A stretch of DNA of 64,000 nucleotides, from the sequence record MT932213.1. One strand, written 5' to 3'. Positions within the stretch are counted from its first letter, which is position 1, and each line of letters starts with the position of its first letter. The position numbers and the translations under genes are program-made. The stretch comes from Escherichia phage VEc74. Shown piece after piece: positions 41,260 through 44,605 of the stretch. The notes below the pieces were generated by a model. The model was given only the letters and a program-made list of their open reading frames with translations, searched no databases and was not told where the DNA came from.

Positions 41260-41538
41260 TCAAAACGTAATTTCTAACCAATCACCATCACGCTGATCAC
41301 TATTGACTTTAAAGCTAAATCCTTCTTTTCTCAGCCAATCACCAATTTCTTCAGTAATCAATTTATCACGAGCAATACAATAATAACTAAAATGTGTTTT
41401 ACCTTGTTCAGCTGCTTTATTAGCAAGTTCCGAAAAATCTTTAATAAAGCACTCTAGTTTAAACTGTTTACTTTTGAATGCTTTTTCGCGTAATTGATTA
41501 GCAAAAGATTCATTTTCATAAAGATCATACTGTTCCAT
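41260..41538 (-). CDS. 24.2: hypothetical protein, 92 aa (24.2 position)
   Basis: Six-frame ORF in the T4 24.2 position. Confidence 0.5.
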   Translation of the reverse strand: MEQYDLYENESFANQLREKAFKSKQFKLECFIKDFSELANKAAEQGKTHFSYYCIARDKLITEEIGDWLRKEGFSFKVNSDQRDGDWLEITF

Positions 41539-41740
41539 TTTTCACCTTTTTATTGATATGTCTTTTTCTATAGACAACTTTTTCTCGAGTTTCAAATTTA
41601 TTCTTAGCAGTCATAGCTCGAGCCCATAATACAGCCACTTCTTTTGCCTGTAAGTTTAATTCACGAGCAATTTCAATGAATGACTTTCCAGACTCATGAA
41701 GAGTAAACACCACAACCTCAGTTCTCATAATCAATCTCAT
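41525..41740 (-). CDS. 24.3: hypothetical protein, 71 aa (24.3 position)
   Basis: Six-frame ORF in the T4 24.3 position. Confidence 0.5.
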   Translation of the reverse strand: MRLIMRTEVVVFTLHESGKSFIEIARELNLQAKEVAVLWARAMTAKNKFETREKVVYRKRHINKKVKNGTV

Positions 41741-41808
41741 GTTATCGAGTTGGTGCCATTATATACATCATTTTCTGATTGTGTTTTGTGTGCTTTCAAA
41801 ACGAAGAA

Positions 41809-41822
41809 AGGGGCCGAAGCCC
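41809..41822 (-). terminator. GC hairpin GGGGCTTCGGCCCC downstream of hoc
   Basis: Perfect inverted repeat. Confidence 0.5.
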
Positions 41823-41829
41823 CTTATGA

Positions 41830-43248
41830 TTATGGATAGGTATAGATGATACCAGTTTCTAAAGCAGTTTTATGAATGATGTATCCATTACGCGATTCTT
41901 GGACATCAACTTCTGGATAATCTTTCATCATCTTCTGAAGAGTGTAACGATGCAGGTAGTATTTACTATCTGGATCTTCAGTTTTCCAATCTTTACCTTC
42001 TTCAGTCATTTTTTGAATTTCATCCATAACCCACCAACCACACCAGATGTAAGCTGAGCTACGGTGTGGAAGAGGATGAACATAAGGTAATTCACCTTCT
42101 GGTTCTGGAGCAACTTTATCAGTTACCTGAACTTGACCTTCTGCCGTAATAGTTTTGCTATCATAATCAGCAGCAGTAACAGTTGCAGTAACTTCAATAG
42201 TTTGACTTCCAATAGATGAGGTATCAACGGTATATACATTAGTTGACCCTTCTACAGGAGAAGAATCTTTCTTCCATGAATATTCAATTTGCGCTTCTTC
42301 TGGAGCATCAGTGACATTAGCAGTAAATGTAGCCGAAGCATCTTGTTGAACGTTAATAGAAGGAGGAGTCAATGTAACCTGTGGATTCATTGTCTTCTTA
42401 TTAACCGTTAATGATACTTCATTAGAAGTAACTTCCTTTTCATTGTAATTTTCAGCAGTTACTTGAGCTACGCATTTAATTCTTTTTACTCCACTTGTAG
42501 TTGGAGTATAGTTAAATGTAGAGTTAGTTTCTCCACCAACTTGTGAATCATCTACATACCACTGATACGTAGCAGATGCTCCATCAGGTTGAGAAGCTAA
42601 GGCAGCAGTAAATTGAACTGGGGTTCCGATAACTCCCGCTGGAGGACTATCAGGAGTTACTGCCAAAGTAGTTGTCTGCTCCTTTTTATTAACAGTCAGT
42701 GATACTTCATTAGAAGTAACTTCTTTTGCATCATAATCTGTCGCGGTTACTTGAGCCACACACTTAATTGTTTTAACTCCGCTTGTGGTAGGAGTGTAAT
42801 TGAATGTAGCAGAAGTTGCTTCGCCCACAGGAGAACCGTCAACGTGCCATTGATACGTAGCAGATGCACCTGGTGGCTGCGAAGTTAAGGCAGCGGTAAA
42901 TTCAACAGCTGTTCCAATCACTCCAGCAGCAGGACTATCAGGAGTTACAGCTAAGGTGGTCGTTTGTGTCTTATTTTGAACTGTGATAGTTGTAGTAGCT
43001 TCTGCTGTTTCAGCATCAGTATCTGGGACTGGGTTTGTTGCAACTACTTTAATAGTCTTTTGACCGGCAGGTCCTTTTAGTACATAATTAAAAGTTGCTT
43101 CAGCTCCATCTTGTGGAACATCATCTACAGTCCAAGCATATGTAATAGGTCCATCTCCAGTTTGACCACTGGGTGTAGCAGTAAACTGCTGAGTCTGATC
43201 TATAACTCCAGTAGGTGTTTTAGGAGTTATATCAACTGTAAAAGCCAT
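41830..43248 (-). CDS. hoc: highly immunogenic outer capsid protein Hoc, 472 aa, with an extra Ig-like domain
   Basis: N-terminus MAFTVDITPKTPTGVIDQTQQF and C-terminus ...GIIYTYP recognised; contains two near-identical about 96-aa Ig-like repeats. Confidence 0.9.
   Translation of the reverse strand: MAFTVDITPKTPTGVIDQTQQFTATPSGQTGDGPITYAWTVDDVPQDGAEATFNYVLKGPAGQKTIKVVATNPVPDTDAETAEATTTITVQNKTQTTTLAVTPDSPAAGVIGTAVEFTAALTSQPPGASATYQWHVDGSPVGEATSATFNYTPTTSGVKTIKCVAQVTATDYDAKEVTSNEVSLTVNKKEQTTTLAVTPDSPPAGVIGTPVQFTAALASQPDGASATYQWYVDDSQVGGETNSTFNYTPTTSGVKRIKCVAQVTAENYNEKEVTSNEVSLTVNKKTMNPQVTLTPPSINVQQDASATFTANVTDAPEEAQIEYSWKKDSSPVEGSTNVYTVDTSSIGSQTIEVTATVTAADYDSKTITAEGQVQVTDKVAPEPEGELPYVHPLPHRSSAYIWCGWWVMDEIQKMTEEGKDWKTEDPDSKYYLHRYTLQKMMKDYPEVDVQESRNGYIIHKTALETGIIYTYP
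42382..42957 (-). repeat. tandem direct repeat (2 x 288 bp) encoding duplicated Ig-like domains of Hoc
   Basis: Protein segments starting TLAVTPDSPAAGVIG and TLAVTPDSPPAGVIG are roughly 85 percent identical by eye over about 96 aa. Confidence 0.8.
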
Positions 43249-43951: not shown

Positions 43952-43959
43952 TATAAATA
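43952..43959 (+). promoter_or_regulatory. late promoter TATAAATA upstream of the GIY-YIG endonuclease gene
   Basis: Exact consensus 29 nt before the ATG. Confidence 0.55.
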
Positions 43960-43987: not shown

Positions 43988-44605
43988 ATGTACCACTTTG
44001 TATATGAAACAACAAATCTAATAAACGGTAAAAAGTATATAGGAAAACACTCTACTGATGACTTGAATGATGGTTACCTTGGTTCCGGTAAGGCAATTCA
44101 GCAGGCTATAAAGAAATATGGTGAAAACAATTTCTCTAGAACAATACTAAAAGAGTTTAAAACTTCCGAAGAAGCGTACATGTATGAAGAAGAAATTATA
44201 ACTCCTGAAATAATAAAAAGCAAAAATTATTATAATATGAAACCTGGTGGAATTGGTGGAATTGTTATGACTACAGAGGTTATAGCAAAGATGAAAGAAT
44301 CTTCCGCTAAGAGATTTGAAAACTCACCGGGCACGGTATTAGGTACAACTTGTTACACTAATGGAACTAAAAATATTTTTATTAAACCTGGAGAACTTGT
44401 TCCAGAAGGATTTGTAAAAGGAATGGTTCATCCTAATAGAAAGTCCAGAAAAGGATGTAAAGTCAAACCGACTACCACAGGAACTTTTTGGGTCAATAAC
44501 GGTGCAATAAATAAATTAATACAACCAGACGGTATTATTCCCGACGGATTTATTAAAGGTCGTCTCATGAAAAGAGATTCTAAAGGCAAATTTAGTAAGG
44601 CATAA
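43988..44605 (+). CDS. segE: GIY-YIG homing endonuclease (SegE-like), 205 aa
   Basis: N-terminal GIY-YIG module (HFVYETTNLINGKKYIGKHS...YLGSGK); position between inh and uvsW. Confidence 0.8.
   Translation: MYHFVYETTNLINGKKYIGKHSTDDLNDGYLGSGKAIQQAIKKYGENNFSRTILKEFKTSEEAYMYEEEIITPEIIKSKNYYNMKPGGIGGIVMTTEVIAKMKESSAKRFENSPGTVLGTTCYTNGTKNIFIKPGELVPEGFVKGMVHPNRKSRKGCKVKPTTTGTFWVNNGAINKLIQPDGIIPDGFIKGRLMKRDSKGKFSKA

Follow-up and report, generated by a model that had tools for sequence, protein, structure and literature searches.

The hoc gene of Escherichia phage VEc74 encodes two diverged copies of a middle Ig-like domain whose copy number varies among related phages

The DNA sequence analysed in this work (the window) is a stretch of 64,000 nucleotides from Escherichia phage VEc74 (sequence record MT932213.1), and the gene examined here, hoc, is located on its minus strand. 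The gene, the domains of the protein that it encodes and a short element that follows it are given below by their positions in the window; the assignment of the gene is based upon its open reading frame, BLASTP searches and gene order.

41830..43248, minus strand: hoc, 472 codons plus stop, encoding the highly immunogenic outer capsid (head decoration) protein
42967..43248, minus strand: Ig-like domain 1 (D1), aa 1–94, ortholog of T4 Hoc domain 1
42679..42966, minus strand: repeat unit A, aa 95–190, the first D2-type Ig-like domain (HMM domain 95–190; cluster A)
42391..42678, minus strand: repeat unit B, aa 191–286, the second D2-type Ig-like domain (HMM domain 191–286; cluster B)
42115..42390, minus strand: fourth Ig-like domain, aa 287–378, ortholog of T4 domain 3 (D3), aligning with T4 residues 191–280
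41830..42114, minus strand: C-terminal capsid-binding domain (aa 379–472) and stop, with two residue differences from T4 Hoc 281–376
41798..41825, minus strand: intrinsic-terminator-like hairpin and T tract, 4 nt past the hoc stop, AAGGGGCTTCGGCCCCTT then TCTTCGTTTT, a consensus match only

The identity of this gene as hoc, which had been proposed from the sequence-only reading, is borne out by the last 96 residues of the protein, which match those of T4 Hoc at all but two positions, and by the retention of the T4 gene order. In BLASTP searches, two overlapping alignments with T4 Hoc cover the whole of the VEc74 protein, and T4 Hoc (5vf3/8t1x, E 2e-219) is its sole sequence match among solved structures. 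The order rnlB-24.2-24.3-hoc-inh-segE is the same as in the T4 annotation, with hoc placed on the same strand between inh and 24.3/24.2/rnlB; upstream of hoc in VEc74 are inh and a GIY-YIG gene resembling segE, and downstream of it are rnlB, 24.2, and 24.3. Over the 24 kb surrounding hoc, the VEc74 sequence shares about 97% identity with the genomes of Tequatrovirus phages, Yersinia phage PST for example. No exact match to the late-promoter sequence TATAAATA was found on the minus strand immediately upstream of hoc or inh.

Some additional observations concern the neighbouring genes. The homolog of gene 24.3 (41525–41740, minus strand) comprises 71 aa in VEc74, as against 56 aa for the T4 version and 67 aa for that of three related metagenome contigs (L005–L007), a difference that may simply reflect another start codon. 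The GIY-YIG ORF (43988–44605, plus strand, 205 aa) has the position and length of T4 segE, and it is preceded by the late-promoter-like octamer TATAAATA at 43952–43959 on the plus strand. This ORF is missing from the same three contigs, where uvsW lies directly upstream of inh, which is consistent with its being a mobile homing-endonuclease gene.

The domain organization of the VEc74 protein, as indicated by BLASTP, Pfam, AF2, and Foldseek results, is one of four Ig-like domains followed by a capsid-binding C-terminus, in comparison to three Ig-like domains in T4 Hoc. The T4 annotation gives a length of 376 aa for the latter protein, as in the sequence-only reading, and the reference is shorter than the 472-aa protein of VEc74. 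The single domain 2 of T4 aligns with both VEc74 units, of which B is the closer (91% nucleotide identity vs. 79% for unit A), and the extra domain is therefore a second copy of this 96-aa domain. These two overlapping alignments, together with the domain evidence, indicate that the arithmetic proposed earlier (T4 Hoc plus one D2 copy) was correct. Outside of the repeat, the dS values between VEc74 and T4 are 0.27 for D1 (88% nucleotide identity with T4 residues 1–94), 0.38 for D3, and 0.14 for the C-terminus. Among the Pfam families, a PKD match at residues 195–267 was above its cut-off, the Ig_3 and I-set matches at 289–373 were below theirs, and other PKD-like or Ig-family matches were near or below the cut-off. 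In the AF2 model, for which the RB69 and T4 rows were left out, residues 1–378 form four beta-sandwich domains with pLDDT values mostly of about 84–96 (about 85–94 for D1, 88–95 for unit A, and 84–94 for the fourth Ig-like domain). When this model was used as a Foldseek query, four-Ig fragments topped the list and the Hoc protein of phage RB49 (3SHS) was also recovered. The C-terminal domain was poorly modelled, with low AF2 confidence, and because of this it was assigned by its sequence identity to the solved T4 domain. The residues H395 and R396 in this domain, which are conserved in the alignments, are the counterparts of H299 and R300 of T4 Hoc, named as gp23-contacting residues (PMC10385173).

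A repeat search identified a head-to-tail direct repeat with a period of 288 nt at 42394–42681 and 42682–42969, for which TRF reported 1.9 copies and a score of 707, far above chance. The tandem repeat had earlier been placed at residues 98–193 and 194–289 (42382–42957); its presence is confirmed, with a shift of 3 aa (about 10 nt) that is of little consequence in a tandem repeat, and in the protein register the units correspond to aa 95–190 (42966–42679) and aa 191–286 (42678–42391). The description of these repeats as near-identical, in contrast, did not survive a pairwise comparison. The A and B units of VEc74 are only 76.4% identical in DNA and 81% (78/96) in protein sequence, and the longest exact run that is common to them is 24 nt. 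By the Nei-Gojobori method, pS between the units is 0.63, dS about 1.35 (near saturation), and dN 0.115, giving a dN/dS ratio of about 0.085.

The DNA sequence of VEc74 hoc matches 682 phage records, the closest of which is 98.0% identical. The frequencies of the different architectures were estimated from 60 evenly spaced records of these 682, scored by the span of the match in the record and the number of its pieces. The two-unit form, seen as single-piece matches of 1419–1425 nt, was present in 20 of the 60 sampled records (including RB27, AR1, PYps14T, and slur02), and the T4 form, with a span of 1131 nt, in about 30 of them (including T4 and RB14). By extrapolation from this sample, roughly one third of the approximately 680 Tequatrovirus-type records (about 230) would have the two-unit architecture. 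The 595 records matching with at least 80% coverage were rejected as a count of two-unit genes, since two overlapping pieces of a 376-aa gene join into a full-coverage match. A scan of viral contigs gave 21 loci, few of them from Tequatrovirus, and it was uninformative on the frequencies. In view of the recurrence of the same gene in a third of the sampled records, and of the two such units that are also present in RB69, the unusualness that the sequence-only reading had implied for VEc74 is not upheld; its hoc is an ordinary form, previously sequenced and annotated. The literature searched, to which the 2010 and 2011 papers on Hoc do not belong, yielded no publication that explicitly describes the D2 duplication.

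In the protein database, Hoc lengths of 376, 472, and 568 aa correspond to one, two, and three units, in exact steps of 96 aa. The 171 D2-type units that were taken from 122 Hocs formed three clusters and grouped mainly by their position across phages, not by phage, with cluster A comprising mainly first units, B second units, and C third units. The architectures observed were A (39), B (33), C (10), A-B (23), A-B-C (4), A-C (3), A-A (3), and a few others, and the VEc74 protein has the A-B architecture. The differences between A and B are located in a few patches, which have been reshuffled from phage to phage into many combinations. The flanks of the VEc74 units are 100% identical to those of the single-unit Hoc P0119, 99.6% identical to those of the single-unit proteins P0063 and P0054, and 98.6% identical to those of the three-unit Hoc P0001. 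The prediction of length polymorphism at the repeat is thus confirmed, as 376-, 472-, and 568-aa forms occur with near-identical flanks and the products of crossover can be mapped. In a tree of the flanks from 122 sequences, at least 27 changes in copy number are needed vs. 36 on average with shuffled labels; this and the other trees were constructed by neighbor-joining on p-distances and are simple distance trees that do not model recombination.

Some of the 376-aa genes correspond to VEc74 hoc after a single in-register crossover between A and B. The P0063 protein corresponds to VEc74 Hoc minus 96 aa in register, with two residue differences, and the DNA of its unit carries A-specific bases to nt 72 and B-specific bases afterwards, with mismatches at 5/288 positions and flanks that are nearly those of VEc74. 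In P0066, the switch between A and B sits within the 24-nt run that is the longest identical stretch of A and B. Both of these sequences are short-read metagenome assemblies; isolate phages occupy the same crossover classes, with more differences. Among the 82 single-unit Hocs, chimeras with an A-type head and a B-type tail number about 31–44 vs. nine with a B-type head and an A-type tail, where the counts refer to cluster representatives and not to independent events, some of the fits contain up to four residual mismatches, and 13 of the "A then B" calls simply reflect a polymorphic A tail. As the A-head/B-tail chimera is, of these two types, the only one obtainable by an unequal crossover inside an A-B array, this distribution points to recurrent deletion from arrays, along with the transfer of arrays between phages at co-infection. 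The D2 of T4 shows the opposite pattern: its head is of type B, and a patch of type A is present close to the end. A mosaic of this kind cannot result from one deletion in an A-B array. Based upon these comparisons, the length polymorphism appears to arise through unequal homologous recombination between old units; in no single lineage is it proven whether units were lost or gained.

Several other hoc genes were of interest in their own right. In Escherichia phage vB_Eco_EH2 (L004:601-1446), a 281-aa Hoc is an in-frame chimera of D1 residues 1–38 and of a D2-type unit from "WYVDD" on, with its junction in the conserved TY-W motif, indicating that unequal recombination happens between D1 and D2 as well. 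Two mosaic Hocs, P0043 (472 aa) and P0047 (567 aa), have a D1 and a unit A of the Tequatrovirus type alongside middle units of the RB69 type (Mosigvirus), and in P0047 the last Ig-like domain is also of the RB69 type. The phages pEK20 (L032) and ATK47 (L040) are labelled as Mosigvirus and have a Tequatrovirus-type hoc, with 91% and 88% nucleotide identity, respectively, to that of VEc74, reflecting either an intergenus exchange of hoc or wrong taxonomy labels. The hoc region of phage T6 (MH550421.1, 106708–107839; 1132 nt) has no annotated CDS and contains stops in every frame, suggestive of a frameshift of one base or of an error in sequencing. Lastly, the hoc match in Shigella phage KNP5 (KX452698.1, 109965–112036) spans 2072 nt in two pieces, in a record that is unusually long (193.6 kb), and it may reflect an insertion in hoc or a mis-assembly.

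The age of the duplication was examined in the DNA sequences of eight two-unit genes, viz. those of VEc74, PinkRuby, PYps14T, RB27, pEK20, AR1, vB_Eco_Some, and an IMG/VR contig. In all eight of them, units 1 and 2 exhibit 75–78% DNA identity and a dS of 0.86–1.35, and the orthologous dS values between phages are 0.31 for A-A, 0.19 for B-B, and 0.24 for the flanks. Similarly, the identity between the units within 31 two-unit proteins ranged from 56 to 85%, and a near-identical pair was present in none of these proteins. As the dS between the copies is far above the orthologous dS, the age of the split between A and B exceeds that of the divergence among these phages several times over, and purifying selection acts on both D2 copies. 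The sequence-only reading had regarded the duplication as a recent event in the lineage of VEc74 itself, for which the repeat being exactly tandem, in frame, and of 288 nt would speak, as would the single unit in the T4 reference and the presence of one unit in some Hocs with identical flanks. However, the 76% DNA identity of the units and their dS of about 1.35, which is 3 to 10 times that of orthologous parts of hoc between Tequatroviruses, are contrary to a recent origin, and the same two diverged units are found in the same order in isolates from several countries, as well as in RB27 and AR1. Furthermore, each unit matches those of other phages far better than it matches its partner: unit A is 98% identical to the sole D2 of some 376-aa Hocs, such as P0083 (phage teqdroes), and unit B is 100% identical to the sole D2 of the 376-aa protein P0114. 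As a candidate recent segmental tandem duplication the repeat was rejected, its dS being not near zero and its copies not each other's closest relatives. A recent duplication is in our view highly improbable, and the duplication that gave rise to A and B is an old one.

Two further explanations for the presence of the second unit merit consideration. Tandem repeats can be mis-assembled and the VEc74 sequence was analysed as assembled, so that an extra copy could in principle have been introduced during assembly. However, the reading frame is intact, the absence of any exact run longer than 24 nt between the copies means that an assembler could not confuse them, and, by extrapolation from 20/60, the same architecture should be present in 200 or more other records; due to this recurrence, an assembly artefact is effectively excluded. 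A less remote alternative is that no duplication in place followed by divergence occurred, and that A and B diverged as single-D2 alleles in separate lineages and became tandem neighbours only afterwards, through an out-of-register crossover at co-infection. T4-like phages undergo heavy recombination, and near-pure A and pure B single-unit genes do circulate on flanks that are almost identical to those of VEc74. However, such a joining requires recombination of the tail of D1 with the tail of D2, which have little sequence in common. In addition, A is the first unit in 39/40 multi-unit proteins, and the two-unit genes include 23 A-B but no B-A arrangements, a largely fixed order that suggests one origin. 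The occurrence of two D2-type units also in RB69, and the prevalence of A-head/B-tail chimeras, as expected if arrays give rise to single-unit genes, likewise argue against this stacking of alleles, which we consider unlikely.

The reading that we favor, with a probability of about 85%, is that VEc74 carries a normal and functional allele of hoc, from a two-unit class that is common in Tequatrovirus, whose A and B units stem from an old duplication and form part of a copy-number cassette. The A and B units would be derived from one old duplication of D2, which predated the diversification of the present T4-like coliphages, and purifying selection would have retained both copies thereafter. The D2 unit would then behave as a cassette that is present in one, two or three copies within the phage population, with its copy number shifting often by means of in-register unequal homologous recombination between the units. 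Deletions of this kind would leave A-head, B-tail chimeras, and during co-infection ordinary homologous exchange would move the arrays between genomes.

The VEc74 Hoc is predicted to be a monomeric capsid fibre that would be attached to the centre of the gp23 hexamer through its conserved C-terminal domain and would project four Ig-like domains (D1, A, B, and D3) in a string. The near-identity of its C-terminal domain to that of T4 Hoc suggests that one monomer is present per gp23 hexamer centre and that the protein is dispensable for assembly. The T4 Hoc fibre is reported to be 180 Å long for four domains (PMC10385173), and by analogy the extra domain should lengthen the VEc74 fibre by roughly one domain, or about 45 Å. 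In domain 2 of the PNJ-9 Hoc, residues S183, L184, and T185 of the motif NEVSLT have been reported as necessary for the binding of MUC2 (fucose) (PMC11853027). This motif occurs once in each of the VEc74 units, starting at residues 180 and 276, and thus two candidate binding surfaces with different loops may be presented, of which the second could raise avidity or broaden the binding to mucins or cell-surface glycans. The differences between A and B lie mostly outside of the strands (13/43 non-strand vs. 5/53 strand positions; Fisher p = 0.016). A crude Nei-Gojobori split by class gave dN/dS values of 0.06–0.20 for strands and 0.20–0.37 for loops, which indicates that the loops are under relaxed constraint; by this crude test there was no sign of positive selection in strands or loops, all of the values being <0.4. 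The copy-number and patch mosaicism of the D2 array can be directly seen in these sequences. That the array also serves as a recombination-driven variable adhesin cassette, by which populations tune fibre length, valency, and loops to the glycans of their habitat, is a tentative suggestion that we regard as rather unlikely; the route it proposes is frequent unequal crossover together with patch exchange among three old types of units. If it is true, the binding of two- and three-unit Hocs to mucus or cell surfaces should differ measurably from that of the T4 form.

For VEc74 alone these results are of little significance, as its gene is a common form of hoc. The points that they add are modest, viz. 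that three Ig-like domains are not the general rule, that the extra domain is old, and that the D2 unit is a cassette of variable copy number whose crossover products can be mapped. They correct a T4-centred view, the three-Ig Hoc being only one of several circulating architectures and the four-Ig form being present in roughly a third of the sequenced relatives. This bears upon the use of Hoc as a scaffold for display or vaccines and upon the adherence of phages to mucus, where the comparisons made so far involve only two- and three-Ig forms. The natural one-, two-, and three-unit genes on near-identical flanks provide ready material for examining the effects of fibre length and valency on binding.

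In comparison with the known Hoc proteins, that of T4 (NP_049793, 376 aa; PDB 5vf3, 8t1x) shares its locus and gene order with VEc74 but contains one D2-type unit, whereas the VEc74 protein contains two. The two-unit Hocs of 472–474 aa include those of vB_Eco_Some, G2540, SHFML-11, PST, RB27, AR1, slur02, and PinkRuby. The other two-unit proteins from Tequatrovirus have the same D1-A-B-D3-Cter arrangement as VEc74, with 90–98% nucleotide identity, and are set apart from it only by point differences and by loop patches that have been shuffled, the most similar protein being 98.7% identical. The three-unit Hocs (568–570 aa), such as those of Escherichia phages UGKSEcP1 and UGKSEcP2, have VEc74-like flanks (98.6% for P0001) as well as A and B, but differ in having a third D2-type unit after B, which is either of type C or a repeated A. 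The Hoc of RB69 (Mosigvirus, 471 aa) likewise has a conserved C-terminus and four Ig-like domains, of which the two in the middle are D2-type units; however, its overall identity to VEc74 Hoc is 59% and its units are more diverged, both mutually and from A and B. In the 468-aa Hoc of Klebsiella phage KEN25_1 (Jiaodavirus; L003:301-1707), the independent tandem copy is that of a D3-type domain rather than of D2, with 101 identical residues at an offset of 94 in the self-comparison. The number of Ig-like domains in Hoc homologs is reported to range from one to ten, with ten in Serratia phage Muldoon (PMC10385173), and the PNJ-9 Hoc is a two-Ig variant that is without D3 (PMC11853027). The Muldoon, PNJ-9, and KEN25_1 proteins thus share with VEc74 a string of Ig-like domains upon a conserved capsid-binding domain, but they differ in regard to which domain has been lost or duplicated.
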